64,000 nucleotides of DNA from Candidatus Uhrbacteria bacterium (GCA_016206155.1 JACQSC010000002.1:143473-207472), one strand, 5' to 3'; numbered from the stretch's first letter, positions 583 to 22,163 are shown. Notes: generated from the letters alone by a model not told the origin. Translations and numbers: made by a program.

Positions 583-607
583 AACAGCAAGAGATATATT
601 TCTCCCC

Positions 608-5343: not shown

Positions 5344-7362
5344 ATGAATATAAAGGTAAAATCAGGGGCTGTTTTTTTGGTTGCGGTTATTTTTGGACTG
5401 TTTGCATTTGGAACTCACGATGCAAATGCGGCATCCTATTGCATTTCGAATGACTGCAGACCCATTCCGCCGCCAAGTCAAAAAAAATATGTTGCACCAT
5501 ATAATGTTTTTGATACAGAAAACAAATACTGCGCTAATAAGGGAAAAAACTGCACCCCTGTTTGGCCGATTAGTTCATATAGGAAGTCGATTGATAGTGT
5601 AGGATATTGTACGAAATATAAATGTGTTTCTCCATGGCTGACAACTATAGAATTAGCGAACATTCAGAAGCAGACAGACGGATACAGCGCATGGCTTGAA
5701 GCAGTTTTTTTTACGCAAGGGGAAGTAACGAACATATCATGGGGTGTGGAGAAGGCGGGAGAGTCCGAAAAAAAGTGCGAGGAACGTCGCGTAAGTTTTA
5801 TCCGATCAAAAGATGTGCCATGCGGCTGGAGAAATTCTTCTACGAGTGTAGAAAGATTGGATAAAGATTCTCAAATGTATAGCGCCAAATTCAGAAATTA
5901 TTATTCGAAAGATCCCAAAAAATGTGATTTCCGCGTAACCGGACCACAAGGATTTCCATCTGAATTTGGCTTTTGTCTAACACAAACACTTCCGCCGCCG
6001 CCCGTAATAAATTATTTTACGATCAACGGTTTGCCGGATATTGCATTTGTGCCAAGAGGGAAACGATTTACAGTAGCATGGAATATTTTTGGGGCAACAT
6101 CAATATCTATCGAACCATTAACACTGGAGGGTTTAGCACAACAAGTTGATAATGCTGGAAATTTAGATGCAGGACATTGGATGAACAAGGCGCTACGCCA
6201 AAATTGGTTAGTTTCAACGAGCTGGAAAAATGATATTGCAAAACTTACAGGAGGAGGCGAATTCGGCTTATCGGCCCAAGCTCATACGAGGTATCGTTTG
6301 ACAGCCTCTAATCCTGGCGGTAAAACAGTAAAAGACGTTATTATTAATGTGCCAAGAAATAGTTATGGTAAATGGTTTCGAGCACTACCTCCGCAGGGGA
6401 TAAAATATGTACTTCCTGACGGCACAATTGACTATGCAGTTAAGTATCTGGAGGAGTATTACGTAACGGACACTAAGCGTTCGTATGGTGTTACAAATTA
6501 TGTTCCCCCTAATGCAAAGGATATTGGCCGCTTTGATTTTATGGATTCAAAAGAGTACGTTAAGGCACGTGACTCTGTCATACGCGGCGATAAAATCAAT
6601 GCTAGCGGCACTCGTATTAGTTCACAAGAAGAATTTGAAAAAATATTCGGACCACCACCATGTCTTGGCGGAAAAACATATGATATATCAGATACTGAAA
6701 CCAGCGGTTTGTTCGGTCCTCGTTATTTAACACCCACGTTCTGGTGTTCAAATGAAAATGATGGTATGTGTGTAGACTATGGACCCGATTGCGATGGAGT
6801 TGACTTACAAGCAGAATGGGATAAAGCTCCAAACGGTATAACTTTCAGGTGCACGTTGGCTGGATTAAAAGCACGGATAGCTACGTGTGTCGGTGAGCAT
6901 GAACGTAAGATTACCTATCTTACACAAGGAAGATATCATAGTAAAGCAGGAATATCGGTAATACAACAATTCTTTACTACACTTTTATTGGCACAATTAT
7001 TTGGAAGTAATGCCAGTAACGCTAGCGTACAGTCATCAAACCTTCCAGCTTCAATGTTAAATTTGCGGTGCCCAACCTGTGATATTGTTAAAAAAGAAGG
7101 TTTTAGTCCTCAGGGAAGCCTTATTCTTGGGCAGGGTGGCGTGCACCAAGATGCAAACGAATTAATGAAACGTATTGGAGAAAAGGAGGCGCGAGATGTA
7201 GGAGTACATTCAGTGAGAGGTTTAAATTTCAACGCAGTTGCTCTTAATAAGGAACCTTTGTCATATAATACGTCTGATTGGATTATGAGTGCGTGCGGAG
7301 CTGATACAGCATGCCAAGATTTTGCAGCGGCAAATGCATATAGGCCAAGGACTTCATGGTGA
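5344..7362 (+). CDS. secreted cysteine-rich protein (672 aa)
   Basis: N-terminal signal peptide MNIKVKSGAVFLVAVIFGLFAFGTHDANA followed by CISNDC. About 30 Cys in total, a poly-Pro linker, and an Ig-like middle section. Lies 21 nt after the preceding gene. Confidence 0.75.
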   Translation: MNIKVKSGAVFLVAVIFGLFAFGTHDANAASYCISNDCRPIPPPSQKKYVAPYNVFDTENKYCANKGKNCTPVWPISSYRKSIDSVGYCTKYKCVSPWLTTIELANIQKQTDGYSAWLEAVFFTQGEVTNISWGVEKAGESEKKCEERRVSFIRSKDVPCGWRNSSTSVERLDKDSQMYSAKFRNYYSKDPKKCDFRVTGPQGFPSEFGFCLTQTLPPPPVINYFTINGLPDIAFVPRGKRFTVAWNIFGATSISIEPLTLEGLAQQVDNAGNLDAGHWMNKALRQNWLVSTSWKNDIAKLTGGGEFGLSAQAHTRYRLTASNPGGKTVKDVIINVPRNSYGKWFRALPPQGIKYVLPDGTIDYAVKYLEEYYVTDTKRSYGVTNYVPPNAKDIGRFDFMDSKEYVKARDSVIRGDKINASGTRISSQEEFEKIFGPPPCLGGKTYDISDTETSGLFGPRYLTPTFWCSNENDGMCVDYGPDCDGVDLQAEWDKAPNGITFRCTLAGLKARIATCVGEHERKITYLTQGRYHSKAGISVIQQFFTTLLLAQLFGSNASNASVQSSNLPASMLNLRCPTCDIVKKEGFSPQGSLILGQGGVHQDANELMKRIGEKEARDVGVHSVRGLNFNAVALNKEPLSYNTSDWIMSACGADTACQDFAAANAYRPRTSW

Positions 7363-7392
7363 TAGTACAATAATATATTTATTTATTCATGT

Positions 7393-7890
7393 ATGATTCT
7401 ATCAGCTAGCGGTTTTATAAAAAAATTATTTAGAATACTCGTTTTACTTGGAATTTTTTGTATCGGATTTATTGGCGGGTATTATTATAATGCTAATGAT
7501 ACGAAGCGGATCGTTTCGGATATGCAAGAAAGAATTATAGACGGATCAGAGATCGCGAAAGTTCAAGGATATCAAGTGGAAGATTTTTATGGAAAAATAA
7601 AAGAATTAAATGGCAGTATTTTATGGGTAAGAAAGATCGTTGGACCAGACGCAGAAACGCAAGATATTATTGAAGTTGGCATTTCCCCTCGCACAGAGCT
7701 TATTGCAATGAAGTATCAAAATGTAAAAGATATTTCTAAACAATTCCTCAAAAGCGATGGGAACATTGGTGAACTAAAAGAGAACATATACGTACGGGTT
7801 TATTACCGCGTAACGGATGCGAATAGTACTGAAAAAGTCGAAGCCCAAACGATATATTATTCAGATAAAAATCCCTTTCTTTTCCAGTAA
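7393..7890 (+). CDS. small membrane-anchored protein (165 aa)
   Basis: N-terminal TM helix (ILVLLGIFCIGFIGGYYY). Tightly packed between neighbouring genes. Confidence 0.55.
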   Translation: MILSASGFIKKLFRILVLLGIFCIGFIGGYYYNANDTKRIVSDMQERIIDGSEIAKVQGYQVEDFYGKIKELNGSILWVRKIVGPDAETQDIIEVGISPRTELIAMKYQNVKDISKQFLKSDGNIGELKENIYVRVYYRVTDANSTEKVEAQTIYYSDKNPFLFQ

Positions 7891-7910
7891 AGCATTGTTT
7901 GCCGTTGTAT

Positions 7911-9683
7911 ATGACACGAGAACAAGAGGACGCGCGTGAAAAATATGCAAATCGTGGAGAATATAATACAGGGTATGTGCGTCAGAGACTGCGCGCGTAC
8001 ATAGCCTCACTTATTGTTTTTTTTTCTCAAGCGCAAGAAGTATCAGCTAAAATAGAATATCAGTTTGATAAACAACAAGGTTCATACGAACTTATTTATC
8101 AAGAAAATGAATCTGAGCGGCCTGTTCATTTTTTGCCAGTTCCAATTGCAGCGATCGGCGAACATGAAAACGGAGAGCGCATACGCCTTCCGTTTTTTGA
8201 TCGATTAAGAAAAATAGACATTACAGAAGGAGGGGTAAATTACTCAATAAAAGATCCGATTGCATTTCGTAATTTTATTGAAAATGAGCTTGACCGCTAT
8301 GTGCGAGCGCTTAACATACATGGAGATATTAAGCCGCAAGATCTTATACAGATAACGGCATTGATAACTAAAAATAATATGCTTCCAACGTCTGATGAGC
8401 GTCTTTTAGATAGCATTAATCATACTCCGTTGGATGAATTACTGATGGGCGTAAAACGCGGTGTTTGCCGTCATTACGCCGCCGCTTTTGAAACGGTGGC
8501 AGAAACTATCATTGAAATCACTCAATCAAAATATCTGCAGAACATTATTGTTGATGAAGTAGGTATGGCCGATGTAAATCATGCATGGAACGTTGTTTAC
8601 CATTTGACTCAAAATAACGGGGCGCATTTTATCAATATGGGATTTATTGATACGACAATCAAGCCACACGGGACATTTTCCGATCTGGGCGAAATCGAAA
8701 AAAGACAAGGCGATGTAAAAAATTTTAGAACCATCTATCTTAATCAATTATATTATGCAGTAAACCCTGAAGATAGAATTGCTGTTGTTCGAGATTCAGT
8801 GCTCTTGGCGGAAAACGAAAAAGAAAAGCTGCAGTACGTGACAGAGCTTGCCTTTACTTTTTTATCGCAAGTTAAAGAACTGTATCAACGGAAAGAAAAT
8901 GGCAAAGCGAGACAAGTATTTGAGGAGGCGGATAAGTATTTTAACAAATGGTACGAACAGTATTCAAAAGACGACACAGCGCTTCAGCATGTGCAGTTTA
9001 TTCGGACAATAATGATATCCATCTATTCTGTTGTGGCAGATAATACGCCTGATGCAGAAGGCAAGGTATCTGTTTACAAACGCGCATTGTTATGGAGCGA
9101 TATATTTAATTATGCTTTGGCGGATGCATATCTAAAAAGCGGCAATCAAGATGAGGCGCGGGCTATTTACGTTGGGATGCTTGAAAACATAAACGACAGC
9201 AGAGTGTTTGAAAAGGTATTTGGATTTTTCAATAAACTCAATGAAAGTGAAAATGTTGAAAAAACATTGAGCGCATACAAAAAATATCTTGAAAAAAGAC
9301 CAGTATCAGAGCAAGCATTCGGTTTTACTATACTTGCCGACGCATATGAGGTATTGGGAAATATTGAACAAAAACTATTATATTTAAAAAAAGCATTTTT
9401 CTGCGACGATGAACGAGCCGAAAGGAGGATGGAGAGAGGGGAACGATACGCTGATTCTGTTCTCGCGCAGGGAGATGCGATAACTGCCAGGAAAATATAT
9501 GATGAAATGTTTAAAATCTATAAAAAAGCAAAAAAGGACGGAAAGATAACCATTCCTTTCAAGCGTCAGATGCCCGGTAAAGGTTTTGTGGAAGTTTTTG
9601 CCGAGGAAGATGTATATAAAGAATATCTAAAGGAGAAACTGGGACAGCCACCGTTTTTACACATTAACGAAGCGGAGAACTAA
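7911..9683 (+). CDS. transglutaminase-like cysteine peptidase superfamily protein with alpha-helical (TPR-like) C-terminal region (paralog A)
   Basis: The track ORF starts at TTG 7899, and the first ATG is at 7911. The motif G-V-C-R-H-Y-A-A-A-F...H-A-W-N-V-V fits the transglutaminase-like core Cys...His arrangement. A signal-like segment (LRAYIASLIVFFSQAQEVSA) follows the start. The last 11 codons lie inside the 190-bp direct repeat described below. Confidence 0.65.
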   Translation: MTREQEDAREKYANRGEYNTGYVRQRLRAYIASLIVFFSQAQEVSAKIEYQFDKQQGSYELIYQENESERPVHFLPVPIAAIGEHENGERIRLPFFDRLRKIDITEGGVNYSIKDPIAFRNFIENELDRYVRALNIHGDIKPQDLIQITALITKNNMLPTSDERLLDSINHTPLDELLMGVKRGVCRHYAAAFETVAETIIEITQSKYLQNIIVDEVGMADVNHAWNVVYHLTQNNGAHFINMGFIDTTIKPHGTFSDLGEIEKRQGDVKNFRTIYLNQLYYAVNPEDRIAVVRDSVLLAENEKEKLQYVTELAFTFLSQVKELYQRKENGKARQVFEEADKYFNKWYEQYSKDDTALQHVQFIRTIMISIYSVVADNTPDAEGKVSVYKRALLWSDIFNYALADAYLKSGNQDEARAIYVGMLENINDSRVFEKVFGFFNKLNESENVEKTLSAYKKYLEKRPVSEQAFGFTILADAYEVLGNIEQKLLYLKKAFFCDDERAERRMERGERYADSVLAQGDAITARKIYDEMFKIYKKAKKDGKITIPFKRQMPGKGFVEVFAEEDVYKEYLKEKLGQPPFLHINEAEN

Positions 9684-9838
9684 TTCATATTATACACAGA
9701 GTTTTTGGGACATAACCGCATATTTTATTTTATCGCGCAAGAGATCTTATGAAGATCCGTATTTATATTTTCATTCCCATTTTTTTCCTGATTATAGTAA
9801 ATAGTGTAGAGGCAACAATCTGTATTAACGGTGATTGT
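9649..9838 (+). repeat. 190-bp direct repeat, copy 1 (about 99% identical to 17797..17986)
   Basis: Compared directly: caccgtttttacacattaacgaagcggagaactaattcat...atctgtattaacggtgattgt. Only 2 mismatches. Confidence 0.9.
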
Positions 9839-9868
9839 ATTAACGGTGTCAGGAATAGTTTTTATTGA
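9749..9868 (+). pseudogene. truncated 5' fragment (39 codons) of the PA14 secreted-protein gene
   Basis: MKIRIYIFIPIFFLIIVNSVEATICINGDC is identical to the N-terminus of the gene at 17897. It is then broken at an attaacggtg microhomology and stops at 9868. Confidence 0.75.
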
Positions 9869-9891
9869 ACGCAGATTGAGGTGGTAATTTT

Positions 9892-12800
9892 ATGTCATTC
9901 CGCTCAAAGCGAGGAATCCCTCGTTTCACCATATTACGAATAACGCCAAAGACCACGTTTGGTTTCCTGGCGTTGTTTTTTATTGGTATTGTCATCCTAT
10001 CTTTTTTTGTTATCGGCACGGCTGCGTCCGCGGCATCGTTTTGTTTTAATAGCAAAACTCCACAAGAGCAATGTTACCCCAACCTTAAATTCATTGGTAC
10101 GGTCGGGACACGACCGGTAAAGAACACGTATCTCAAAAAGCTAGAGCCGCCAAAAAGTGATTATTGGGGGGACACACAAAGGCATTGGCCAACCTCAAAC
10201 CTTGGGGACGCAACTAAAGATCGTTACTGCAATAACAGTAAATGGGGCGGGGGAACTACAAATCAAACGTGCATTTCCCGCGCCGGCTTGGAAACTGCAA
10301 TGCCGCGACTCGAGATTGTCAATCGTGGGGCAGATAGCTCCTTGGAAAATTTTCCGATGACCCTGCGCGTCCGAGGCCAGACGAAGAAGTACTGGTATTT
10401 TCCCGCCTATTACAGTATTCTTCCTTTTAAAAACCCATATACAGGTGAAGATAAGATATACCAGTATGATGTTCGCCCCGATCTCAGCTATAATTTTAAA
10501 GACCTGAAAGGACGCAAATGTCCCTGCGCTCCAGCGACACCACCAATACTTGATGATCAATGGGGACAAGGAGATGGTTATTATACTTACCACGGCGCTC
10601 CCTTTTTTAAAGAGGAAAAAAACGGTTTCCGGAAGTGCAATTTTTTGTCAGACAAACGCGACTACTATCCTGTAGATGTGTCCGGATGGAGTCACCGCAC
10701 ATGGGAGGAGACAGAAGATCCAAACGATTGTTATTTTGAAATTGCGAGTTCATCAAACGTACCCGGTGCAAATAAAAAATTTTATTATCGTGTCAAAAAA
10801 ATTCCCGTTATTCATCTTGAAGAAATTTTCCATAATGATACGAACGCTTTTCGTAATTATGAATATTCGGTAAAACAAGAGTCAGTGGCACGAAACGAGT
10901 ATGAAAGAGTAAAGACCGAAGAAATTGAAACGCCAAAACTGATAAACAAATGGCGTATTTATTATCGATATGACTATGGAAAGGAACGGATAGATTTAGA
11001 AACAGATAATTTTGGGAAGATCGTCGCGGCACGTTATGGCAATCAAACACCTGCTGAATGCCCTTGTTCTAAAAACGGAAAAATATGTATTGTTGGAGAT
11101 GTAGTTCCATGGGATGTCTATTCTTGTTATGAAAAATATAAAGATTGGAATAAACCATGGTCACAGTTAGCGGAAGAAGATAAAAGAAAAGATCGTAGAG
11201 TGCAATCAGCAAGGAAGAGCTACTTTAAAGCCTTCGGAGAATTGCAGAAAGATTCTGGAGAATTGTTAGAACAAAATAGAGTCGCAAATATCGCGAGAGA
11301 GAAGGGGGAATACTATCCATACAAAGTATATGAACCAGGGGTCGATCCGCCAGTAAATTCCTTTGATTTTATATCCACGTATGATGGTCAATTGCTACCA
11401 ACGGCAAAACAAGCATATAAGGTAAAAAATGAACAGGAGATCTGGAATAGAAATGCGTTGAACTTTGGCTACGGTGCCATAGTAGACTTAAGGTATACGC
11501 CTACGAATTGCAATATTAACGGCCATTTCGATAACATCGAAATTGGTTGGGACAATAAAGGCAGATATACGGATTATACGCTCACGATGCACGGAAATCC
11601 CAGAAATAAGATTAGTGATATAAAGAAGAGTGCAGAAGCTAGACGTATTCAGGCAGTCGCGGTCCCGACGCAGTTAAGTCTTAGTGGCGCAGAATGTAGA
11701 CTGCAAATGACCCCTCATCTTTTTGACTTTCCTGTGACATACTATTTTTCAACAGGGGACGTGGACATGCCACCGATAAGGATTCAATCATTTAAGGTTT
11801 CCGTCGAAGGAAAAACATCCAATCCGTTAGGGGAATGCAGCGCAGACAATTACACAAAATGTCTCCCGAAAGAAAAACTGCCAAGCGGCATGGAAAGTAG
11901 TGAGGCGTTTTTTACCGATGGTCGTACTCCTTTACGTTCGAAAAGAAGCGCACCAGCCAATACAACACTTGAGATTGAAACAAAAGAGAAAGAAACATTT
12001 GCCAATGTAAACTGGAATGTCACCGGAATGGATGATGTAAATGGAATTGTGGTTACGGTGGTGAAACATACACAAGACATAAATCATAGAGTTTACGATA
12101 TCGCCAACGTTGTTCAGGGGGGGACAGGAAGTTATACATCTCAACTTAAACCTGGAGACTGTAAAACAGAAAATAATAAACAAACATGTTCATGGAATAC
12201 CTATTCATTTTTTCTTACTGCGGTCAACGACCGCGCAGTAACAGATTCCGATAGATTAAAATATAATGAAGATAACATACAATACGTTTGGGCCGCTTCG
12301 CAAAAGATTGATGTAAAAGTAAAAAAAGAGGAATTGGCTATTCCTAAGTTTAGCGTTAAGAAATCCACTGGGAAGAAAGATTCCGCGGACTTAGAATGGA
12401 AAACAACAGGCGCGGAATTTATTAGGATAGAGATGCAGTATTCGTGGGGCAGGAAGAAGTCATATCCTCAGGGTGATAAGTGGGAAGACGGAACATGGAG
12501 CAAAGATACGAACGGCTCTGTGACGATTAATGGCATCGATACAAGAGATACGGTGTTTACCCTGTTCGCCCAAGACAACGAGGGCAATACCATCACATCA
12601 AACACAGAAAAGCTTGGTGATCCAAAGGAAGTGAACATCATCGATGTTGTTATTAATGGTCTGGGACTTCGAAATAGGCTTCTGAATAGATCACTCTATG
12701 AAATTATTACTGATTCTGATTGTCCCGACATTCCCATTGTCGGAGATATTTGTAGAGCGTTATCATTCAACAATATTTGGAGAACAGTTGGAGGTCTTGT

Positions 12801-14223
12801 AACAAAGGTTATCCCAGGTCTTGGTGATTTAGTGGGAATGTTCCTTAATTTCTTGAAGGAACCGGTGGTCGCAATTTTTGGGGTTATTATGGAGATTGTT
12901 GACAATTTTGTGATTCAAAAGAATACCGTGAAGGGTGCGGCAGAAAGCATCAATGAATTCATTGGCGGCTTCTTGAGAGAGTTTATTCCAAATTTTATCG
13001 CTGGCGCCGCCGAAGGGGTATTTAATAAGTTGATGGGTGATTGTGTTGGTTCAAAAATGGGTGGATGGATCAACATTGGAGTGCAAGCGCTGTATTCAGG
13101 AGTTGGGGGATTATTGCAGTTGATTGGAAAAATTCCGCTTCTTGGTGGTGTGGGTAAGATTGGTGAAAGTATGACGTCAGCATGTCCTGTCGAAAACTCC
13201 GGATGTACGATTGGGATTTGCGCGGGACAAGACACAGGTAAAGAAATAGGAAAAACCGTGCTTGAGGATGTTATCTCCGGGCTCCTTCCGTTTGTGCCTG
13301 TTACAGGAGCGCTTGATAGCGCCAAGAAGTTTATCGAACCTATGGCGACAACAATTTTCCCTGAGTGTAAAAATACCGTTCCCAAAGAACGTCAAGATAC
13401 AGATGCGTACGCCTGTATAAGTGGTTCTTGTCAGAAAGCTGAGAGAAAAGTTGAAATTTGCGGACTTGAAGGTGGAGGTGGTGGAGCGTATCCAAACAAG
13501 GCAGCCTGTCTAGCGTCGTGTGGCATACCACCGGTTACGACAGAAGTGAAGTATTATTATAAATGCAACGATCCAAGCACGCTTACATGTGATAAACAGG
13601 AAGAGAAAACAGAGTATGAGGGAGACGCTGGACTGTATGCATGTAATTTGACATGTAAGGAAAAGAAATTTGATGAGCCGACTAAAGACTATTTTAAATG
13701 CATAAATAAGAACGAAGGTCAATGTAGAAAAGTGGAAGAAAGTACCACTTATGTGGGTCTTATAGGAAAAGCAGCGTGTGACATTACGTGTAAGAAAACA
13801 GGAGTTGGTTGTGGATGTCCTAAACATCCCGAGTATCTTACCACATCTGAAATTGGCAAGAATCCTTTAAATAGAAAGAGAGCGATTGCAAATGTTTTGA
13901 TGACAACCGTCTACGTTTCGACCGGTGGTGTATTTTGTGTACGACGGGATGCCGCATATAATTGCGCGGAAATACTAGATAAGGCAGGCAAAGCTGACGA
14001 CCTTATAAAACTGGGGCGAGACAATAATTGGGATGTGTCCCAGAAGAAAGAAAGCATTGATCGTAGTGTATTTACCGGACTGTACGAAAAAGCAAAGCTA
14101 GTTCCTGGATGCGCTGCCTTTATAGCTATTGATAGCATTAAAAATTTTAAATTGCCTCTTTGCGAACAGGAAATAACTAATGCACGGTGCGAGGCAATTA
14201 CCTCTGAAGATGACTGCAGATAG
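9892..14223 (+). CDS. giant secreted or membrane-anchored cysteine-rich protein (1443 aa) with a glycine-zipper hydrophobic segment and three tandem about 40-aa Cys-rich repeats
   Basis: N-terminal TM/signal segment (FGFLALFFIGIVILSFFVIGTAASAASF). About 70 Cys in total. Residues around 930-1110 are Gly/Ala/Ile-rich with GxxxG runs (GVGGLLQLIGKIPLLGGVGKIG). Three 'K-Y-[YF]-K-C...C...E-x-T-x-Y-x-G...A-C...C' repeats sit near the C-terminus. Confidence 0.8.
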   Translation: MSFRSKRGIPRFTILRITPKTTFGFLALFFIGIVILSFFVIGTAASAASFCFNSKTPQEQCYPNLKFIGTVGTRPVKNTYLKKLEPPKSDYWGDTQRHWPTSNLGDATKDRYCNNSKWGGGTTNQTCISRAGLETAMPRLEIVNRGADSSLENFPMTLRVRGQTKKYWYFPAYYSILPFKNPYTGEDKIYQYDVRPDLSYNFKDLKGRKCPCAPATPPILDDQWGQGDGYYTYHGAPFFKEEKNGFRKCNFLSDKRDYYPVDVSGWSHRTWEETEDPNDCYFEIASSSNVPGANKKFYYRVKKIPVIHLEEIFHNDTNAFRNYEYSVKQESVARNEYERVKTEEIETPKLINKWRIYYRYDYGKERIDLETDNFGKIVAARYGNQTPAECPCSKNGKICIVGDVVPWDVYSCYEKYKDWNKPWSQLAEEDKRKDRRVQSARKSYFKAFGELQKDSGELLEQNRVANIAREKGEYYPYKVYEPGVDPPVNSFDFISTYDGQLLPTAKQAYKVKNEQEIWNRNALNFGYGAIVDLRYTPTNCNINGHFDNIEIGWDNKGRYTDYTLTMHGNPRNKISDIKKSAEARRIQAVAVPTQLSLSGAECRLQMTPHLFDFPVTYYFSTGDVDMPPIRIQSFKVSVEGKTSNPLGECSADNYTKCLPKEKLPSGMESSEAFFTDGRTPLRSKRSAPANTTLEIETKEKETFANVNWNVTGMDDVNGIVVTVVKHTQDINHRVYDIANVVQGGTGSYTSQLKPGDCKTENNKQTCSWNTYSFFLTAVNDRAVTDSDRLKYNEDNIQYVWAASQKIDVKVKKEELAIPKFSVKKSTGKKDSADLEWKTTGAEFIRIEMQYSWGRKKSYPQGDKWEDGTWSKDTNGSVTINGIDTRDTVFTLFAQDNEGNTITSNTEKLGDPKEVNIIDVVINGLGLRNRLLNRSLYEIITDSDCPDIPIVGDICRALSFNNIWRTVGGLVTKVIPGLGDLVGMFLNFLKEPVVAIFGVIMEIVDNFVIQKNTVKGAAESINEFIGGFLREFIPNFIAGAAEGVFNKLMGDCVGSKMGGWINIGVQALYSGVGGLLQLIGKIPLLGGVGKIGESMTSACPVENSGCTIGICAGQDTGKEIGKTVLEDVISGLLPFVPVTGALDSAKKFIEPMATTIFPECKNTVPKERQDTDAYACISGSCQKAERKVEICGLEGGGGGAYPNKAACLASCGIPPVTTEVKYYYKCNDPSTLTCDKQEEKTEYEGDAGLYACNLTCKEKKFDEPTKDYFKCINKNEGQCRKVEESTTYVGLIGKAACDITCKKTGVGCGCPKHPEYLTTSEIGKNPLNRKRAIANVLMTTVYVSTGGVFCVRRDAAYNCAEILDKAGKADDLIKLGRDNNWDVSQKKESIDRSVFTGLYEKAKLVPGCAAFIAIDSIKNFKLPLCEQEITNARCEAITSEDDCR

Positions 14224-14240
14224 ACAGAAAGGTTTTTATT

Positions 14241-15392
14241 ATGTTAAACGAACGCGCACATAAAGAGTTGCTACCGGCAGAGCGGTATGAAAAATTTATC
14301 CTCCCCCTTGCGTTTGTATGCGGTATGTCTCTGCCTCCTGAAGCTCGCGCTGCAGAGCCGCACGCACGCGAATCGTTGCAGCCGCTTACCGCAGAACAGC
14401 TTAAAGAAGTCCGTGAATTAGAAAAAACATCTCCGCTTGCAAAAGCAATTGATGCTGTGCCCGATTCCTTAATGAGAGAAGAAGGATATGATGGGGATAT
14501 TTTGTCACGCAAAGAGCGGGCGAAGTCCCAAATCCCGATCTTGTACGATGTAAGATGGAAGGTTGGTCCGGGTGAAAAGCCGTTGTCACAACGATATCCG
14601 CTTATTAATGTAGAGATATTTACTAACGGCGCTTTTATCTATTTCAATATTCCTGATGATGCGCGATTGCACAAGTTGGGCATCACGCGAGAGGAGATGG
14701 AAGTTGTTGCATCAGAAATTAAAGAGTCAACAACGATCCTGACCGATATGCCCGCGCACCGAGTTAGTCAGCCGAAAGATTCTAACCTTATTGTTTTTTT
14801 TAGTGACAATCCTCAAGAATCCTCAAGCATTAGAGACGGAAGGGCTGTTGGTCATACTCTGTATACAGTAGGTGTGCCAATCTCGTTTTTTCCATTGGGA
14901 ACTGTATACCCAATAGAATTTATTGAGCCTGGCAGTAATGGAGGTGTTTATATTCCACTGGAATCTTATAATGATAAAATTGAAAAAATGTTATCAGGTA
15001 AGAATCTTCATGAAAAAACTCGTGAATTAATATATGATATTACGCGGCACGCATACTTCAAGGAGTTGATTTATACAGCAGAGCATGAAATATGCCATTT
15101 TCTCGGTTACGGTCATAGCAACAATAAGAAGCATATTACTTATGGCGGGCCGGGCGTGGTGAGCTCGGGTACCGTCGTATCTCTCGGAAAAAGATCTGGA
15201 AAAAAACCAGTAATTCCCGAAGGCGCTTCTCTATATACTGATAAAATGGGAAATGATTATTATTTTTTATCTGCATGGGGTGACATTCGAAAATCTCCAG
15301 TCGTTGATCTGAATTTTTTTCTACGGATATTTGCGAAACAGAATAAGGAGCGAAAACTTATGGAAGAGCGCAATCAGCAGCATATGGAGTAA
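14241..15392 (+). CDS. putative zinc metallopeptidase with metzincin-type HEICHFLGYGH motif (383 aa)
   Basis: Matches the HExxHxxGxxH consensus exactly. RBS gaaagg lies 8 nt upstream. The gene starts 18 nt after the giant gene. The N-terminal region is hydrophobic. Confidence 0.6.
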   Translation: MLNERAHKELLPAERYEKFILPLAFVCGMSLPPEARAAEPHARESLQPLTAEQLKEVRELEKTSPLAKAIDAVPDSLMREEGYDGDILSRKERAKSQIPILYDVRWKVGPGEKPLSQRYPLINVEIFTNGAFIYFNIPDDARLHKLGITREEMEVVASEIKESTTILTDMPAHRVSQPKDSNLIVFFSDNPQESSSIRDGRAVGHTLYTVGVPISFFPLGTVYPIEFIEPGSNGGVYIPLESYNDKIEKMLSGKNLHEKTRELIYDITRHAYFKELIYTAEHEICHFLGYGHSNNKKHITYGGPGVVSSGTVVSLGKRSGKKPVIPEGASLYTDKMGNDYYFLSAWGDIRKSPVVDLNFFLRIFAKQNKERKLMEERNQQHME

Positions 15393-15697
15393 TAACGCAC
15401 GAGAAAAAGGATGCGGGAAAGCTGTGCAAAAAACGGTGTCAGGAATGGTTTATTGCAAAAACTCCTACTTATAGGCATAGATAGGAGCATGGGTAGGGGG
15501 ATAGGAATCATTTTATGTGTGGTATGATTTTCGTATGCTTCGACCACACAGAACAGATGTCGGAGATGTCGTGTATCACTTATCAATCTTGCGAACGCTC
15601 GATTGGGCAAAAACGTGACCATGGGCCGTTTTTGAAATCAAATGTCTTGACAACGATACCGTATACCTGTATTGTATAGTTACATACAATTATCACT

Positions 15698-16021
15698 ATG
15701 AAGCTTGGATTTAGCGCTATATCAATTGAGGGGTTTGATTGGGATACGGGGAACAGTGAAAAGAATTGGATAAAGCATCACGTCAGAAAGAATGAATGCG
15801 AGGAGGTTTTTTTCAATAAGCCGTTAAGAATTTTTGATGATCAGGTATATTCCAAGACTGAGAAACGTTTTGGGGCCCTCGGAAGAACGGATAGAGGAAG
15901 ACGGCTCACTATTATATTCACTATACGAAAAAAAATGATTCGGGTCATTTCTGCACGAGAACAAGGTCGGCACGATCGAAAAATTTATGAAGCAGTCGAG
16001 CAAAACTATTACCAATCATAA
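15698..16021 (+). CDS. brnT: BrnT-family (DUF497) toxin
   Basis: FDWDTGNSEKNWIKHHV...EVFF...RTDRGRRLTIIFTIRKKMIRVISAREQGRHDRKIY matches the BrnT pattern (FEWD..K...N..KHGV, R.ISAR). It lies immediately upstream of a small RHH gene. Confidence 0.7.
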   Translation: MKLGFSAISIEGFDWDTGNSEKNWIKHHVRKNECEEVFFNKPLRIFDDQVYSKTEKRFGALGRTDRGRRLTIIFTIRKKMIRVISAREQGRHDRKIYEAVEQNYYQS

Positions 16022-16036
16022 TCAGGACGCACCTTT

Positions 16037-16327
16037 ATGAAAGAAGGGACAAGGAGAAAAATCAAAATGCTTCCATCGTTCCGCAGTGAGGATGAGGAGC
16101 GGGAGTATTGGGATAGCCATGAATTGAGCGATGTGTTCGACGTAACACATGGCACTGATATGACATTTCCCAACCTCAGGCCATCAACGAAAAACATTAC
16201 GATCCGCGTGCCCGAATCCATGCTTTTTGCCCTGAAGGGTATTGCACGAAAAAAAGATGTGCCATATCAGTCACTTGCAAAAGTGTATCTTGACGAAAAA
16301 ATTCATGAGGAGTATTTCGTGAAATGA
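16037..16327 (+). CDS. brnA: BrnA-family antitoxin (ribbon-helix-helix)
   Basis: PNLRPSTKNITIRVPESMLFALKGIARKKDVPYQSLAKVYLDEKI matches the BrnA consensus (FPNLKPSTK.ISIRLP...DVPYQSLIK). Alternative start at M11 (16067). Confidence 0.65.
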   Translation: MKEGTRRKIKMLPSFRSEDEEREYWDSHELSDVFDVTHGTDMTFPNLRPSTKNITIRVPESMLFALKGIARKKDVPYQSLAKVYLDEKIHEEYFVK

Positions 16328-16513
16328 AATAACTTCGCTTAGTGTCACGGAAAATTGGGGAAAATTGGTGTCAGAAAATTGGTGTCAAGTCCGCATTTTC
16401 GCATTTGGAAAATGGATTCACTACGACAAGTTAAACCATATACTTTCCAGCCGCTTTTTACCGCGTCGAAGTAACGTTTTCTGCCCGCCACTTTTATCAT
16501 GAGGCAAAAAAGG

Positions 16514-16541
16514 TTGACACAATTTTTAACCATGGTAGAAT
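16514..16541 (+). promoter_or_regulatory. sigma70-like promoter (TTGACA-16 nt-TAGAAT) for the ATPase gene
   Basis: Sequence ttgacacaatttttaaccatggtagaat. The same element is present in the decayed copy at about 22266. Confidence 0.5.
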
Positions 16542-16569
16542 ATTGTAGTAATACATTTTTTGTCAACTT

Positions 16570-17751
16570 ATGCGTATTGACCGCTATATTCATGACGTCA
16601 TCCTTGCGGATCTTCATGAGCCAACCATGGTGTTTCTTGCAGGTCCCCGACAAGTCGGCAAGACGACACTCGCGCACATTCTCGGAGAGAAAGACTTCAC
16701 TGCTTATCAGTATTTGAACTGGGATGACAGCGACGACCAGAAGCGTATTCTCGCCCGTGATTTTGAAGCTGATGCGCGCTTACTTGTCTTTGATGAACTG
16801 CATAAATACCGCAACTGGAAAAATTATCTTAAGGGACTATACGATAAACAAAAAACTCGATTCGCCATCATCGCAACAGGCAGTGCGCGTCTTGATATGT
16901 ATCGTCGCGGCGGCGATTCGTTGATGGGGCGTTATCATCATCTTCGGCTTCATCCGTTTTCACTTGCGGAACTTGTTGGGCAGAGGTTTTCCAGCAGTCC
17001 ATTTTCAGAGCTGATGTTTCCCGTTGAAACGAGTACCATTGCCCAAGCGGCGCGCGACCTGCTCCGCTTTGGAGGTTTCCCAAAGCCATTTTTGCAAAAG
17101 AGCGATACTGCGTTGAGACGTTTTCACAACGAGCGCTTTGATCGCTTAATCAAAGAAGATATTCGTGATACCGAACGGGTGCACGACCTTTCGTTACTCC
17201 AAGAGCTCGCTGCGCTTCTTCCGGAACGGGCAAGCTGCCGCCTCTCATTAAACAATCTGCGAGAGGATCTTGGAGTTGCGCATAAGACCGTGAGCCATTG
17301 GATGGATGTGTTTGAGAGATTTTACTATCATTTTCGTATTACGCCATTCGCGATCAAAACAGCCGCCTCGCTTCGCAAGGAACCAAAACTCTATTTATGG
17401 GACTGGTCGGTGGTGGAGGATGCTGGAAATCGTTTTGAGAATATGATCGCGTCACATCTTCTTAAGTTTGTTCATTTTTTATGCGACACGCAAGGATACA
17501 AAGCGATGGTGCACTATATGCGGGATCGTGATGGACGCGAAGTTGATTTTTTGATAACGATTAATCAGAAGCCATGGTTTGCTGTTGAGGTAAAATATTC
17601 AGACACCACTATCTCGCCACATCTTTCCTATTATATGCAACGCGCTCGGATTCCATTCGGATATCAGGTTGTCGCAACGCCAGGGATTCATCGAATAAGA
17701 GATTCAATTCATGTGATAAGCGCCAGTCGTTTTCTTGCGGGGCTTGTGTAA
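16570..17751 (+). CDS. COG1373-type ATPase (AAA domain plus DUF4143-like C-terminal domain)
   Basis: Walker A GPRQVGKTT and Walker B LLVFDELH. Overall architecture of the widespread 'ATPase, AAA_14/DUF4143' family. Has its own promoter and terminator. Confidence 0.8.
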   Translation: MRIDRYIHDVILADLHEPTMVFLAGPRQVGKTTLAHILGEKDFTAYQYLNWDDSDDQKRILARDFEADARLLVFDELHKYRNWKNYLKGLYDKQKTRFAIIATGSARLDMYRRGGDSLMGRYHHLRLHPFSLAELVGQRFSSSPFSELMFPVETSTIAQAARDLLRFGGFPKPFLQKSDTALRRFHNERFDRLIKEDIRDTERVHDLSLLQELAALLPERASCRLSLNNLREDLGVAHKTVSHWMDVFERFYYHFRITPFAIKTAASLRKEPKLYLWDWSVVEDAGNRFENMIASHLLKFVHFLCDTQGYKAMVHYMRDRDGREVDFLITINQKPWFAVEVKYSDTTISPHLSYYMQRARIPFGYQVVATPGIHRIRDSIHVISASRFLAGLV

Positions 17752-17772
17752 GGAGGGAAAACGGTGAAGGAG

Positions 17773-17796
17773 AAACGGTGACTGTCACCGTTTTTA
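17773..17796 (+). terminator. rho-independent terminator (aaacggtgactgtcaccgttttt)
   Basis: Perfect 8-bp stem with loop ctgt followed by a T-run. Lies 22 nt after the ATPase stop. Confidence 0.65.
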
Positions 17797-17986
17797 CACC
17801 GTTTTTACACATTAACGAAGCGGAGAACTAATTCATATCATACACAGAGTTTCTGGGACATAACCGCATATTTTATTTTATCGCGCAAGAGATCTTATGA
17901 AGATCCGTATTTATATTTTCATTCCCATTTTTTTCCTGATTATAGTAAATAGTGTAGAGGCAACAATCTGTATTAACGGTGATTGT
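17797..17986 (+). repeat. 190-bp direct repeat, copy 2
   Basis: See 9649..9838. Here it spans the terminator-proximal spacer, the RBS and the first 30 codons of the PA14 gene. Confidence 0.9.
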
Positions 17987-20599
17987 CTTGATCAGCAACA
18001 ACTTCATGAGTTTGACAAGATTCAGAATTATTTAGATTCTTCCGCTATCAATCGTTATAGCCAAAATGGAGAACGATTTATAAGGTGGCCGAAGGGAAGT
18101 TACAGAGAGACCGGAAAGAGCGCTCTTTGCATAAATGGGAATTGTATTACCGAGTGGCCACCTCGTTTGAAAAATTTCGAATTAACTCTCGAAGGCGAGG
18201 ATTCAATGCAACGATATGTGGGCAGGTATTTTGTATTCGGACGAGTAGCAGCTCAGGATTATTATCGAGCTGGAGTTGTTTTGAAATACAATAACCAGTA
18301 CAAGCGATGGCTTGATCCTTCAACCGCTTCCCCGCCAGAAATTATTTATACAACGCCAGCATTTTCAGATACGGGGTATTCATTTGAGACATATTTAGGG
18401 CAATCCGTGGTTGGAAAAAGAAACTTTAATTATTTAAAATCGTCAAGGTATACCGATTTGAGCAATTTTGCTTGTAACAAGGTATCTACAAAGACAGAAT
18501 ATATTTACAATGATAAAGCACGATATATAAAATTTGAGGGCGGCAGAGACGAAGCAAGCTATCGCGGTTCGCTCACCTGTAAAATTCGTCACAAAAGTCC
18601 TATTGGCCTAGAGGCTGTTTATCCATTTGCTGTTGGAAAATTTGAATTGCCAGCTCCGAAAATACTTCAATTCAACGGAATACAGACTTCAGATGGAAAA
18701 CTTCAATTTTTTATCTTTGGTGACGGATACCAATTGACCGCTAAATATGTTGCAGAACTTGATTCGTCGGGACAGGAAAAGAAAGTCATTTTTGATTTGT
18801 TGAATGATCCGTTTGATTTGATGCATATCATTCCTTATCCCGCCGTAGAAACATCATATCGTTTTGTTATAAAAAATTCAGCTGGTGTCGTAACAGCGGA
18901 ATTTTCAAAGAGGCCAAATTATTACGGTCCATGGAGACCGGGCCCTCGATGGGCGACCGACACGCTTGATGATGGGCTAAGGGAGTGGTATAGTTCAGTT
19001 CGCTCATATCAAAGCGTTATAGATGAATTGGCTAATCCACCAAAAGAGAGGAAAGCAAGGGAGGATTCTTCGGAGCGCAACACAAGACAAAAAACAAAAA
19101 TTCAAAGCATTATCAGCAATGTAGGCAGTGGAATCACGTATTACGGACAAAATATTCAAGACATGTCGTATATTCATGATCCAGAGGTTGCTTTCGAGGA
19201 TACGTACACAGATCACCTTGTAGACTCCCTTCCTCCTTGCAGTCCAAAACCAAACCCGCTCTTAATTCAAGAGGCCTACCCAGATCTTTCAGAATTTTAT
19301 CCGGCATATCGCTGTTTTGGTAAAGCAAAACATTGTCTTGACGTGCTGCCGGATTGTCATATATCAGCTGTTAATATAACTGATATATTTAATTTAGATC
19401 AAATACATGCGAAAGATCTTCAAAATGAAGCGTTCATAGTAGAGTCTTGTGGTTTTTGGAGCTCCAATGAAAACAAATTAAAGCATCCTGATCTTGGACG
19501 ACGATGGTTATGGGACCCGAAGCGAAAATATCTTGTAAAAGATAATCCAGTTCAGACGAAAGTACGAGAAGTGCGTTGTGAAGATGGCGTGGTAGATACA
19601 CAGTATACGTATTCAAGCGTTCGCGGACCTAAAGTTAAATACGAATGCGGCCTTATGGATTCACGGTGCAGGGAGGGCGGGGTACGATCGCGCATGGAAA
19701 TCGCGAGAGAGTTAAAATCGCGTTCCATAGAAATTCCGACAGAATCGCCGACTTCGATTAAACAACAAGGAAAGCCAATCAATGCTGAGTCAACAGGCAG
19801 TGAGTGGGTTGATTGCTCGAAAACCCCTGAAGGGTGTAATAAATTTGTTCCAGATGATATAAATGACAATGCTGGCCATCTTTATCATTCTGAAGGGCAT
19901 TCAAATGATGGCATTCGTGATTTTCAGCGTCGCCTGAATGAGGCGCGCAGGGATGGTTCTGGAACCCATCCGATTGATCTTTATAATCCCCAAACACAAA
20001 AACAATATGTTGAATCAAATACAGGAGTTGTCACAAAGGAAGAGGCGGAATCTATCTATGGTAGTACAACTTCTGAGCAGCGTGAAGAAATCATTGACAA
20101 GGCAAAAGAGAAAAGAACCGATAGCGCGTTTAGTGTTGCGTCAATTATAGGCCAGAAGAAATGCAAGACTGACTTTCCATACGGCATCTTCCATGTGTGT
20201 TATTTTTCCGGGATAAACGCACCGATGACTGACGCGTCGGTCATTTTACAACAGCCTGAATGGAACGTGCCAGGTCCCATAAAAACAGGAGTGTTGATGG
20301 ATAATAGCTGGGGGACGGGGGTTATCAGTGCGACCAAGAGAACAGATGACATATCTGGCGTCTGGCGCGGACAATTTTTGTTTGAAAAGGGAACTTATTC
20401 ATTTTTCACGGTTGCAGATGATGGTGTTGAGGTTTGGTTTGACGATACCATGATTATTCAAAATTGGGCTGATCACGGAGAGACAGAAAACCGATCATCC
20501 CCTATTTTTCTTGATGGAGGATTTCATACCATTATGGTTCGATGGTACGAAAAAAACGGAGGGACTCGCTTGTTACTGCGAACCGAATTTATTCAGTAA
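17897..20599 (+). CDS. secreted protein with C-terminal PA14-like domain (900 aa)
   Basis: Signal peptide MKIRIYIFIPIFFLIIVNSVEA followed by a CINGDC / CINGNC motif. The C-terminal segment GVWRGQFLFEKGTYSFFTVADDGVEVWFDDTMIIQNWADHGETENRSSPIFLDGGFHTIMVRWYEKNGGTRLLL matches the PA14 pattern (Y.F...DDG..L.ID......NW.DHG.......L.AG.H.I.V.Y.E.GG.A.L.L). Confidence 0.8.
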   Translation: MKIRIYIFIPIFFLIIVNSVEATICINGDCLDQQQLHEFDKIQNYLDSSAINRYSQNGERFIRWPKGSYRETGKSALCINGNCITEWPPRLKNFELTLEGEDSMQRYVGRYFVFGRVAAQDYYRAGVVLKYNNQYKRWLDPSTASPPEIIYTTPAFSDTGYSFETYLGQSVVGKRNFNYLKSSRYTDLSNFACNKVSTKTEYIYNDKARYIKFEGGRDEASYRGSLTCKIRHKSPIGLEAVYPFAVGKFELPAPKILQFNGIQTSDGKLQFFIFGDGYQLTAKYVAELDSSGQEKKVIFDLLNDPFDLMHIIPYPAVETSYRFVIKNSAGVVTAEFSKRPNYYGPWRPGPRWATDTLDDGLREWYSSVRSYQSVIDELANPPKERKAREDSSERNTRQKTKIQSIISNVGSGITYYGQNIQDMSYIHDPEVAFEDTYTDHLVDSLPPCSPKPNPLLIQEAYPDLSEFYPAYRCFGKAKHCLDVLPDCHISAVNITDIFNLDQIHAKDLQNEAFIVESCGFWSSNENKLKHPDLGRRWLWDPKRKYLVKDNPVQTKVREVRCEDGVVDTQYTYSSVRGPKVKYECGLMDSRCREGGVRSRMEIARELKSRSIEIPTESPTSIKQQGKPINAESTGSEWVDCSKTPEGCNKFVPDDINDNAGHLYHSEGHSNDGIRDFQRRLNEARRDGSGTHPIDLYNPQTQKQYVESNTGVVTKEEAESIYGSTTSEQREEIIDKAKEKRTDSAFSVASIIGQKKCKTDFPYGIFHVCYFSGINAPMTDASVILQQPEWNVPGPIKTGVLMDNSWGTGVISATKRTDDISGVWRGQFLFEKGTYSFFTVADDGVEVWFDDTMIIQNWADHGETENRSSPIFLDGGFHTIMVRWYEKNGGTRLLLRTEFIQ

Positions 20600-20606
20600 G
20601 TCGTCT

Positions 20607-22163
20607 ATGAGCGAAAAAACCAGAAAGTTTGAAAAAGCTGTGGTAGCTCTTGGTGCGGTAGGAGCGCTTCAATTTATCCAGCAGGATGCTCGCGCGGAAA
20701 GCGTTCGCCATCCAGTATCACAACAATTTGAATTAACCTACCAAGAGCGCGAAGGCGGAGAGCCGATCATTATTCGATTCCAATCTCCGAAAAATTTCGG
20801 ACATGAACAAGCTGACGAAACAGTAGACGATCATCCACTAATAAGAAAAATGAAAGAGACTGATGTATTTATTCATCATGTGAACGGATCTATCCTAGAC
20901 AGGAAACAATTTAGAGCATCAATCATTGAACGCATTCCCTCGATAAAGCAGCGATTGCGCATACCGGAACAAAATATTTCCCCACGAGAAAGTATTAAGC
21001 TCGGGGAATATATCATAAAGCAAGACCTTAGGTATGATTATTCTAGTGTTTATCCGTCCGACAGTGACGCGAGGAAGCGATCGGAAATTATTGACATCAC
21101 GCCAGTAGATCAGCTTCGCGGGAAGGGAGTTGTATGTCGCCATGCCGCGGTATATTTTTCGAAAACGCTTGAAGAGATTATTCAATCTGAAGCTCAACAC
21201 TCTCCCCAGGTACGCGGAATGTCAGTTGATGAACTTAGTGGTGATGTTAGACACGCGCTGAATAGTGTTCATAGAATATATCGGAAGGATGGTAAAACAA
21301 TTTTTGAGATAACGCCAATAGATATAACTCCTTCTGAGCGTAAAGAATTTCGGGTTGATACAGAACAGACAGTAACGAAACCCGCGGAAAGGATTTTATC
21401 GTTTCTTCGTCTCCATATTTTTCCTTTCGTGTCGTCAGAGTATATCTTCGCTAGTTTACGTTCTTTTTTTTCCGAAGTCATGCCACATGATGAAAAACTG
21501 TATGCCGTCAATGAGGCATATGAAATCTACCGCGATTCAGTGGAAGCGTTGAAAAAAAACGCACATCATGAGATACCATCACTTTTTTCTTCGGCAGTTC
21601 TATTTTTTGATGATATTCACGCTGGAGCTGTTCAAAAAAAGGACTGGGGTATAGTGTTGGCGGTTCAGGACGTTCTATATCAAATATTTCGTTCGCATGC
21701 AAATGATTTTTCAGATGTCAATAAAGCTCTTGCAATATACAAGGATAGGATTGCGCAAACAGCATCATCGGAGAATATGCGACAGATTCACGCATACTCT
21801 TGCTATGGAGACGCGCTACGAAGGTATGGACGGCCTGGCGAAAGTCTTGATGCTATGGAACGCGCATATATAATTAGCAGAATGGTGGAGTATTGGAAAT
21901 ATCATGTTGAAATAGGTATGGCATACGCTGATTTTTTAGGTGATGCCGGAATGAGAAAAGAAGCCCTTGCAATTTTGCGTGAGCTTTTTGAGTATTTTCA
22001 AAAGCTCCCGAAAAATGGAGCACTTGCAATCGGTTATCATAATGAGATCTATGAGAACGGTGAATATAAGAAGATTGAACCATTTGCGTCGCGCGAGAAT
22101 TTTGAACGATATGTTGAGCACAAAAAGAGGGGGTGGGAATCCAAAGCAAAATCACGAGATTAA
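20607..22163 (+). CDS. transglutaminase-like cysteine peptidase superfamily protein (paralog B), secreted
   Basis: The track ORF 20511 overlaps the upstream gene by 89 nt. The start was moved to M33 (atg 20607), 8 nt after the upstream stop. Signal-like N-terminus KTRKFEKAVVALGAVGALQFIQQDARA. Core G-K-G-V-V-C-R-H-A-A-V-Y-F is a paralog of CRHYAAAF in 7911..9683. Helical C-terminal half. Confidence 0.65.
   Translation: MSEKTRKFEKAVVALGAVGALQFIQQDARAESVRHPVSQQFELTYQEREGGEPIIIRFQSPKNFGHEQADETVDDHPLIRKMKETDVFIHHVNGSILDRKQFRASIIERIPSIKQRLRIPEQNISPRESIKLGEYIIKQDLRYDYSSVYPSDSDARKRSEIIDITPVDQLRGKGVVCRHAAVYFSKTLEEIIQSEAQHSPQVRGMSVDELSGDVRHALNSVHRIYRKDGKTIFEITPIDITPSERKEFRVDTEQTVTKPAERILSFLRLHIFPFVSSEYIFASLRSFFSEVMPHDEKLYAVNEAYEIYRDSVEALKKNAHHEIPSLFSSAVLFFDDIHAGAVQKKDWGIVLAVQDVLYQIFRSHANDFSDVNKALAIYKDRIAQTASSENMRQIHAYSCYGDALRRYGRPGESLDAMERAYIISRMVEYWKYHVEIGMAYADFLGDAGMRKEALAILRELFEYFQKLPKNGALAIGYHNEIYENGEYKKIEPFASRENFERYVEHKKRGWESKAKSRD

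Follow-up and report, generated by a model that had tools for sequence, protein, structure and literature searches.

Glycine-rich or glycine-zipper segments of phage tape-measure proteins and of the type VI secretion system (T6SS) effector Tde1 mediate the permeabilisation of membranes or translocation (PMC10240207). The tape-measure protein gpH of phage lambda is cleaved in its glycine-rich region, and gpH* forms a transmembrane pore (PMC12617516). Little is understood of how cells of the Patescibacteria (candidate phyla radiation, CPR) attach to hosts and draw resources from them; the players identified so far are type IV pili and an unusual type IV secretion system (T4SS) with pilin arrays. 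Arrays of VirB2-like pilins are typical of this phylum, and a cultivated relative cannot grow epibiotically without them (PMC10633639, PMC12102498). Here, 64,000 nucleotides (nt) from "Candidatus Uhrbacteria" (Patescibacteria; GCA_016206155.1 JACQSC010000002.1:143473-207472), called the window below, were analysed around a gene at 9892-14223 (plus strand) that encodes a protein of 1443 amino acids (aa), the target. It belongs to an unnamed, very rare family of secreted proteins without a matching known fold or family, and its kind is that of modular secreted surface or effector proteins.

The reading that is favoured here, tentatively and with more doubt than assurance, is that the target is a host-contact protein that would act together with a tail-fibre-like protein and would carry a membrane-active module. 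It starts from features that were computed, namely an export signal, conserved cysteines, beta-sandwiches, a helical glycine-rich module that is not an anchor, the shuffling of modules between relatives and a conserved operon. Secretion, the content of 46 cysteines, the non-anchor character of the module and its tape-measure-like segment, the operon, the neighbourhood with pilus and PA14 genes, the mosaic make-up of the family and the variability of its island all speak for it.

A secreted protein with a longer start than annotated

The open reading frame (ORF) is a real gene, as an earlier sequence-only reading of this DNA had proposed: its ATG at 9892 lies 7 nt downstream of the Shine-Dalgarno sequence GAGGTGG (9878-9884, plus strand). 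The same protein is present at NCBI as MBI4252812.1 (1307 aa) with M137 as its start, an annotation that omits the signal peptide and 136 conserved residues (9892-10299). The alignment with a homologue, P0002 (the other homologues are P0003 to P0006), begins at aa 34 of the target, and P0007, a longer cluster mate of P0002, has a complete signal peptide. Thus, the long start is correct, and the NCBI start is 136 codons short.

The signal peptide (aa 1-48; 9892-10035, plus strand) begins MSFRSKRGIPR and has a basic N-region, a hydrophobic core of 19-22 aa and the sequence ASAAS, after which the mature protein begins F-C-F. Its aa 23-41 have a Kyte-Doolittle hydropathy (KD) of 2.88 and an apparent membrane-insertion free energy (dG) of about -4.2; this and all other dG values are approximate, position-independent estimates on a biological-hydrophobicity scale. 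The A-x-A / x-[YFW]-C junction is common to the homologues (P0002/P0007, P0003, P0004, P0005). The hydrophobic N-terminus and the conserved A-x-A junction indicate that the signal is of the Sec type and that it is probably cleaved; the earlier statement that the protein is secreted thus stands.

A related pattern was seen more widely. In many secreted proteins of the island described below and of related loci, A-x-[YFWI]-C-x(2-17)-C, often then P, directly follows the signal peptide. Carriers are the products of the window genes at 5344-7362, 9892- and 17897-, P0002 to P0005, and proteins of the syntenic loci L007 and L010; the motif reads, for instance, ASYCISNDC, ASFCFNSKTPQEQCYP or ATICINGDC. 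It may form a disulfide loop common to these N-termini, or it may be a signal for sorting. Separately, a furin-like RSKR site in the sequence TDGRTPLRSKR was considered as a conserved element and rejected: P0003 has RPNR at this place and P0005 has no basic pair.

The central glycine-rich module

The central module (aa 911-1165, about 255 aa; 12622-13386, plus strand) is predicted, with low confidence (mean AlphaFold2 pLDDT 41), to be all-helical and moderately amphipathic. The composition of aa 941-1100 (G 15.6%, I 11.2%, V 10.6%, L 8.8%) agrees with the earlier description of a segment rich in these residues. Its nearest relatives are in P0004 and P0005, and Cys 944, 954, 1051, 1098 and 1105 are conserved among the three proteins.

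The hydropathy profile, the dG estimates and the comparison of the family all support the view that the segment is not a simple transmembrane (TM) anchor. In the module, KD over 19 residues exceeds 1.6 solely at aa 981-1008; this marginal segment has 2-3 charges, the stretch holds K989, E990, E1002 and D1005, and the hydrophobic moments are moderate (muH 0.3-0.55 at mean hydrophobicity, H, of 0.3-0.6). Among the relatives, P0002 and P0006 have no segment with KD above 1.6, P0005 has one with three charges, and P0004 has an uncharged hydrophobic glycine-rich stretch at aa 412-430 (KD 2.06). For the non-signal segments of all six family proteins the predicted insertion dG is at least +3.2 kcal/mol. 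With a single, charged KD segment, no conserved TM propensity and these dG values, a multi-pass anchor was rejected. Taken together with the conserved cysteines, this suggests that the module is a folded, disulfide-braced extracytoplasmic helical domain.

The same evidence bears on another explanation, in which the central module, the cysteine-rich C-terminal domain or both hold the target on the envelope of the producing cell by way of re-entrant or in-plane helices. The N-terminal region would then be an adhesin or receptor-binding head, and no other cell would be attacked. The target has no other anchor (it lacks a sortase-type signal, and its signal peptide is apparently cleavable), its beta-sandwich domains are of the stalk type typical of adhesins, and its C-terminal domain is without an enzyme-like motif. 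Furthermore, uncharged glycine-rich hydrophobic stretches do occur in P0004, as given above, and in the architecturally similar protein of L007, which has two with KD of about 2. However, the lack of conserved TM propensity, the charges in the target's own segment, the uniformly unfavourable dG values and the conserved cysteines, which argue for a folded extracytoplasmic domain, are all difficult to reconcile with self-anchoring, and this explanation is regarded as doubtful, although it deserves serious consideration.

The sequence-only reading had described GxxxG spacing in the segment and had likened it to pore-forming or fusogenic segments. The GxxxG spacing did not survive comparison with 5000 shuffles: within aa 960-1095 of the target there are 4 GxxxG motifs versus 3.97 expected and 8 small-xxx-small motifs versus 8.6 expected. 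Enrichment is found only in homologue P0002 (15 GxxxG versus 6.9 expected, P=2e-4). What does lend some weight to a resemblance to membrane-active segments is a set of weak but repeated matches to tape-measure families of PHROGs. The family phrog_58 is matched with E=8e-4 by the full target protein and with E=5.3e-6 by the segment alone, over aa 915-1088 of the target versus profile positions 713-843 of 1544; the segment also matches phrog_991 (E=1.1e-3) and phrog_1272 (E=0.037). Tape-measure families are matched by P0003 and P0004 as well, and two shuffled controls gave no tape-measure match. The module weakly resembles the hydrophobic glycine-rich part of tape-measure proteins, a likeness that does not amount to family membership.

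The N-terminal region and the beta-sandwich domains

After the signal peptide the target has six modules. The N-terminal part is rich in cysteine, tyrosine and tryptophan, as had been noted (aa 49-821: C 2.3%, Y 6.5%, W 2.1%), and all 18 of the 18 cysteines in aa 49-821 are invariant in P0002 and P0003. However, the about 900 residues that had been described as globular comprise at least three units, two of them predicted beta-sandwiches, which the models place at aa 628-818 (model residues 580-770) and aa 819-907. The first unit (aa 49-627; 10036-11772, plus strand) has 14 conserved cysteines and a helix predicted at about aa 423-470; it is common to P0002 and P0003 and distantly related to part of P0005. 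The second (aa 628-815; 11773-12336, plus strand) is a predicted Ig-like beta-sandwich with 4 conserved cysteines and the motif NTYSFFLTAxNxRAVTDSDRLKY; Foldseek matches of this region are weak and are to Ig-like or adhesin-repeat folds only. The third (aa 816-910; 12337-12621, plus strand) is predicted to be an FN3/PKD-like beta-sandwich, with Foldseek matches to PKD and FN3 domains in the Protein Data Bank (PDB) at a TMt of 0.5-0.74. It is present in P0004, P0005 and P0006 and is not found in P0002 or P0003.

These structural statements derive from AlphaFold2 runs on the two halves of the protein, for which the alignments held 4-5 sequences. Because homologous sequences are so few, the confidence is poor: the mean predicted local distance difference test (pLDDT) is 41.5 and 40.9 for the two halves, and the usable parts of the models are the beta-sandwich domains alone (pLDDT 60-84 for the Ig-like and 67-78 for the FN3/PKD-like domain). 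In a Foldseek comparison of the models with the PDB, no fold beyond beta-sandwiches (FN3, PKD, Ig) was found.

Cysteine-loop repeats and exchangeable C-terminal domains

The central module is followed by three tandem cysteine-loop repeats of about 44 aa each (aa 1171-1302; 13402-13797, plus strand), which conform to [YF]-x-C-x(4-8)-C-x(12-28)-C-x3-C. The sequence-only reading had reported three repeats with 4 Cys each; the repeats are real, but the first has 5 Cys. Homologues have one copy versus three in the target, and the motif was not found elsewhere in the 64-kb window. The further description of the repeats as Cys-knot-like had to be abandoned: with 4 Cys per repeat (5 in the first) the canonical cystine knot, which requires six, is impossible, and structure prediction of the repeats gave pLDDT below 50 and no fold.

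The C-terminal domain (aa 1303-1443, about 140 aa; 13798-14223, plus strand) is predicted to be helical, contains 8 Cys and carries the motif GCGCP...KRAxAxxLMT...AYxCA. This domain, type A, is shared by the target, P0002, P0005 and P0006; P0003 and P0004 carry another, type B. The possibility that types A and B are divergent forms of one domain was rejected, as the hhalign probability is 0.1%. A profile search with type B gave no further relatives, and the C-terminal domains matched nothing, and no toxin family, among Pfam (E up to 10), NCBIfam and PDB profiles.

A rare and mosaic family

Searches of Pfam, NCBIfam and PDB sequences with the whole protein and with the separate modules gave no match, in keeping with the earlier remark that the fold is not a recognised one; in PHROGs only the weak tape-measure matches were found. 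When 1.84 billion cluster representatives were searched exhaustively with HMMER, 6 clusters were found, which comprise 8 sequences in all among about 15 billion. Word-indexed searches, with the single protein or with a 6-sequence profile, returned only the target itself and P0002. Patterns from the N-terminal region and the central module gave no new members in GTDB genomes, JGI metagenomes or IMG/VR, a contig scan with the C-terminal domain of the fibre (80 loci) gave none either, and a tblastn search of the INPHARED phage genomes detected no relatives.

The few members are related in different parts. The N-terminal region of the target is 38% identical to that of P0002 and 33% to that of P0003, and the glycine-rich stretch of these two proteins differs from the target's and is more zipper-like. 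P0004, P0005 and P0006 share the FN3-like domain and the central module with the target (P0004, E=8e-23); the N-terminal parts of P0004 and P0006 differ from the target's, and the N-terminal region of P0005 is only distantly related. Judged by these alignments, the family is a mosaic whose modules have been shuffled or recombined between members.

A conserved neighbourhood

Seven loci with a family member were compared: the window, L001, L002, L003, L004, L005 and L086 (the members in L003 and L086 fall in the same cluster). In all seven, a tail-fibre-like gene lies upstream of the family gene. It is directly upstream in five loci, one gene away in L005 and three genes away in the window. The product of the fibre gene in the window (536-5323, plus strand) has 1595 aa, includes 10 or more GNVGIGT-type repeats, has at its C-terminus a domain like Peptidase_G2 and matches phrog_9942 with E=5e-57. 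The C-terminal domain of the fibre (about 220 aa) is 41-66% identical between loci, far better conserved than the target family; its own match to Peptidase_G2 is weak (E=2e-5, 24.5 bits versus a cutoff of 25).

This linkage could mean that the target is a structural subunit or assembly factor of the fibre, such as a tip, base or length-determining protein, with its hydrophobic helices buried in an oligomer; the filament would be built from the tail-fibre-like protein or from VirB2-like pilins. Consistent with this are the strict genetic linkage itself, the nature of the matched tape-measure families, which are structural proteins of the tail interior, and the arrays of VirB2-like T4SS_pilin (PF18895) genes upstream of the fibre in two loci: seven genes in L004 (1087-4579) and three in L009 (132-1855), where a thrombospondin-type-3-repeat protein follows the fibre in place of a family member. 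However, no such family neighbour was found at over 50 further loci whose fibre C-terminal domains are more distant, the family is far rarer than the fibre, and the much more conserved fibre domain does not co-vary with the module types of the target. A part in building the fibre is therefore considered quite improbable. VirB4 was not seen in any retrieved locus.

In the syntenic loci L007 and L010, the position behind the fibre gene is taken by non-homologous proteins that are rich in Cys and in Gly/Ala and are of like design: they have a signal peptide and then an x-[YF]-C...C start, and they combine beta domains with a Gly/Ala stretch of high hydrophobicity and a C-terminal domain. These proteins were examined as distant homologues of the target, but no homology is detectable, and they are architectural analogues only.

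Two kinds of gene recur downstream of the family gene. A gene for a secreted metzincin-like protein directly follows in the window (14241-15392, plus strand; 383 aa; 18 nt after the target stop), in L001 (6885-8084) and in L086 (4353-5414). These proteins of 350-400 aa carry HExxHxxGxxH, which in the window protein reads HEICHFLGYGH (aa 282-292; 15084-15116), and their matches to Matrixin (M10) are sub-threshold (E=0.018, 9e-4 and 3e-3). In L003 only a truncated 5' part of such a gene is found, without the zinc motif. A gene for a multi-pass membrane protein resembling DUF975/GPDPase_memb lies downstream in four of the seven loci (L001, L002, L005 and L086); it is found neither in the window nor in the retrieved part of L004.

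These downstream genes bear on a further explanation, that of a polymorphic toxin or large bacteriocin, in which the N-terminal region binds a receptor, the glycine-rich module permeabilises or translocates, the C-terminal domain is toxic and the DUF975-like protein confers immunity. The two unrelated C-terminal domains on related scaffolds, the shuffling of modules and the frequent membrane-protein gene would all fit such a system, and precedents exist in CdzC/D/I, where glycine-zipper contact-dependent killing is paired with a membrane immunity protein (PMC5380434), and in the glycine-zipper translocation segment of Tde1 (PMC10240207). However, neither C-terminal domain matches a toxin family, and there are no orphan toxin or immunity cassettes. 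Furthermore, the metzincin-like gene directly follows members of type A (window, L001) as well as of type B (L086), the DUF975-like gene likewise follows both types, and the latter is missing from the window and from the retrieved part of L004. The toxin explanation is weakened by this lack of co-variation between downstream genes and C-terminal type and by the failure to match any toxin family, and it is considered unlikely.

A model for the target in cell-to-cell contact

With these alternatives set out, the reading of the target as a host-contact protein can be stated more fully. In this model, the target would be a Sec-exported, disulfide-stabilised modular surface protein in a cell-to-cell contact apparatus, with the tail-fibre-like protein and, usually, the metzincin-like protease and the DUF975-like membrane protein as its partners. 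After cleavage of the signal peptide, for which the sequence features provide the basis, the Cys/Tyr-rich N-terminal region and the two beta-sandwiches would project outward and bind a surface ligand. The helical glycine-rich module would be folded and water-exposed at rest and could then enter or disturb a lipid bilayer, in all likelihood the one of the cell that is contacted, much as has been proposed for tape-measure proteins and for glycine-rich segments of the Tde1 type (PMC10240207, PMC12617516); this step is suggested by the weak tape-measure similarity and by physico-chemistry. The cysteine-loop repeats would form a stiff spacer, and a binding or effector activity would reside in the exchangeable C-terminal domain. 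Speculatively, the metzincin-like protease might mature the target. Within this model the earlier designation of the target as an "effector or adhesin" is a plausible one.

Several observations weigh against this model. GxxxG is not above chance in the target, and a glycine-zipper periodicity is not supported for it. The tape-measure similarity is weak, involves about 130 of the 1544 profile positions and may reflect helix and composition. The low mean pLDDT of both AlphaFold2 models makes the helical-bundle picture a weak one. The type A C-terminal domain is without a recognisable catalytic motif or known homologue, the window is without a DUF975-like membrane-protein gene, and no relatives were found in IMG/VR viral contigs or among INPHARED phages. 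With a family as extremely rare as this, statistics on co-occurrence draw on just seven loci. Furthermore, both a host and an epibiotic lifestyle of the organism are assumed from other Patescibacteria.

A bolder version of the model may also be imagined, in which the fibre, the tape-measure-like target, the metzincin-like protease and the DUF975-like protein form a phage-independent "recognise and penetrate" kit. The fibre would bind the host, and the glycine-rich module would enter the host membrane and open a conduit or deliver the C-terminal domain. This version is a long shot; if true, it would provide a molecular route for an ultra-small epibiont to the membrane or cytoplasm of its host. 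Should the module be membrane-active, the target would offer a concrete candidate, open to testing, for engagement with the membrane of the host; otherwise, the family still illustrates cleanly how surface proteins diversify in the manner of cassettes in a reduced genome. The immediate impact is limited by the rarity of the family and by the absence of a cultivated carrier.

The surface-protein island and its rearrangements

The target lies in an island (6001-22000) with a GC content of 0.38-0.44 versus about 0.50 where the window carries housekeeping genes, which fits an island of surface proteins that is exchanged horizontally or evolves fast. The island holds the PA14-domain gene (17897-20599) and adjoins a type IV pilus cluster; the remaining window is housekeeping. 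Two direct repeat copies of 193 nt, 98% identical, lie at 9649-9841 (plus strand), where the repeat overlaps a promoter-like site at 9664-9693, and at 17797-17989 (plus strand), where it spans the start of the PA14-domain gene (its first 30 codons) together with the region upstream. A 39-codon ORF at 9750-9869 (plus strand; MKIRIYIFIPIFFLIIVNSVEATICINGDCINGVRNSFY, then stop) is a truncated duplicate of those first 30 codons, and the target thus probably sits behind a copy of the upstream region of the PA14 gene. The repeats bracket an 8-kb block with the target, the metzincin-like gene, a BrnT toxin/CopG-type antitoxin pair (15698-16021 and 16037-16327, plus strand) and an AAA_14/DUF4143 gene. 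The flanking repeats and the truncated PA14 copy suggest that this block is a recently recombined, possibly excisable cassette. In L001, a RelB/YafQ pair is found at a place similar to that of the BrnT/CopG pair.

Further rearrangement is indicated directly upstream of pilB, where fragments of the AAA_14 gene are repeated at 22245-22310 (from 16492-16557, 92%) and 22312-22459 (from 17139-17286, 99%). The fragments derive from its promoter region and coding sequence and appear to be a gene remnant. The possibility that the target gene is the target of a diversity-generating retroelement was considered and not supported, as no template/variable repeat pair involving it was seen.

Two paralogous TPR-containing proteins of about 550-590 aa are encoded at 7899-9683 and 20511-22163 (plus strand), with relatives in L007 (3163-4719) and L010 (13432-14646). 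In the first of the pair, GVCRHYA...HAWN presumably recalls a transglutaminase-like Cys-His core; Pfam reports only TPR. The type IV pilus cluster (22565-30341, plus strand) encodes PilB (T2SSE), PilC (T2SSF), PilM and several N_methyl pilin-like proteins, one of which (593 aa) has 117-nt periodic internal repeats at 26652-27385.

Comparison with known systems

The nearest comparison is with phage tape-measure proteins (PHROG 58, 991 and 1272; lambda gpH). Like these, the target has a helical stretch of about 170 aa of glycine and aliphatic residues that is only marginally transmembrane-like, and a fibre-type receptor-binding protein is encoded in its vicinity. Proteolysis is a further parallel: gpH is cleaved in this part, and the target gene is followed by the metzincin-like gene, although processing of the target is speculative. 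However, there are no tail, head or chaperone genes in the window and no viral relatives, and the target, unlike tape-measure proteins, has a Sec signal peptide and 46 Cys. Its first 900 aa are not a long coiled coil but contain one long predicted helix (aa 423-470) and the two predicted beta-sandwiches, and the match covers less than 10% of the profile, with the rest of the target unmatched.

The contact-dependent bacteriocin CdzC/CdzD (PMC5380434) and, with its N-terminal segment, Tde1 (PMC10240207) are likewise exported or surface proteins with a hydrophobic stretch rich in glycine. The likeness to glycine-zipper proteins extends to the enrichment of GxxxG in P0002 and to the multi-pass membrane protein encoded nearby in several loci, but not to the GxxxG content of the target or to its sequence, for which no homology was found. 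In addition, the target's module of about 255 aa has conserved cysteines and charges and lies inside a multidomain protein of 1443 aa, which is secreted by Sec and not by a type I secretion system or T6SS.

With polymorphic toxin systems the target shares a modular build, two unrelated C-terminal domains on related scaffolds and recombination between members. It differs in that no toxin family is matched, no pre-toxin or trafficking domains are recognised and the downstream gene does not co-vary. Loci for T4SS and VirB2-pilin arrays in Patescibacteria (PMC12102498, PMC10633639) are of the same phylum, PF18895 arrays lie upstream of the fibre in two related loci, and the island of the window abuts a type IV pilus cluster. 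However, there are no VirB4, VirB6 or PF18895 genes in the window, and the T4SS components described so far do not include the target family.

On these comparisons, the target does not qualify as a tape-measure protein, glycine-zipper toxin, polymorphic toxin, multi-pass anchor or cystine knot. By analogy, it appears most like a membrane-active segment of the tape-measure or glycine-zipper kind that has been grafted onto an adhesin-like secreted scaffold with polymorphic ends.

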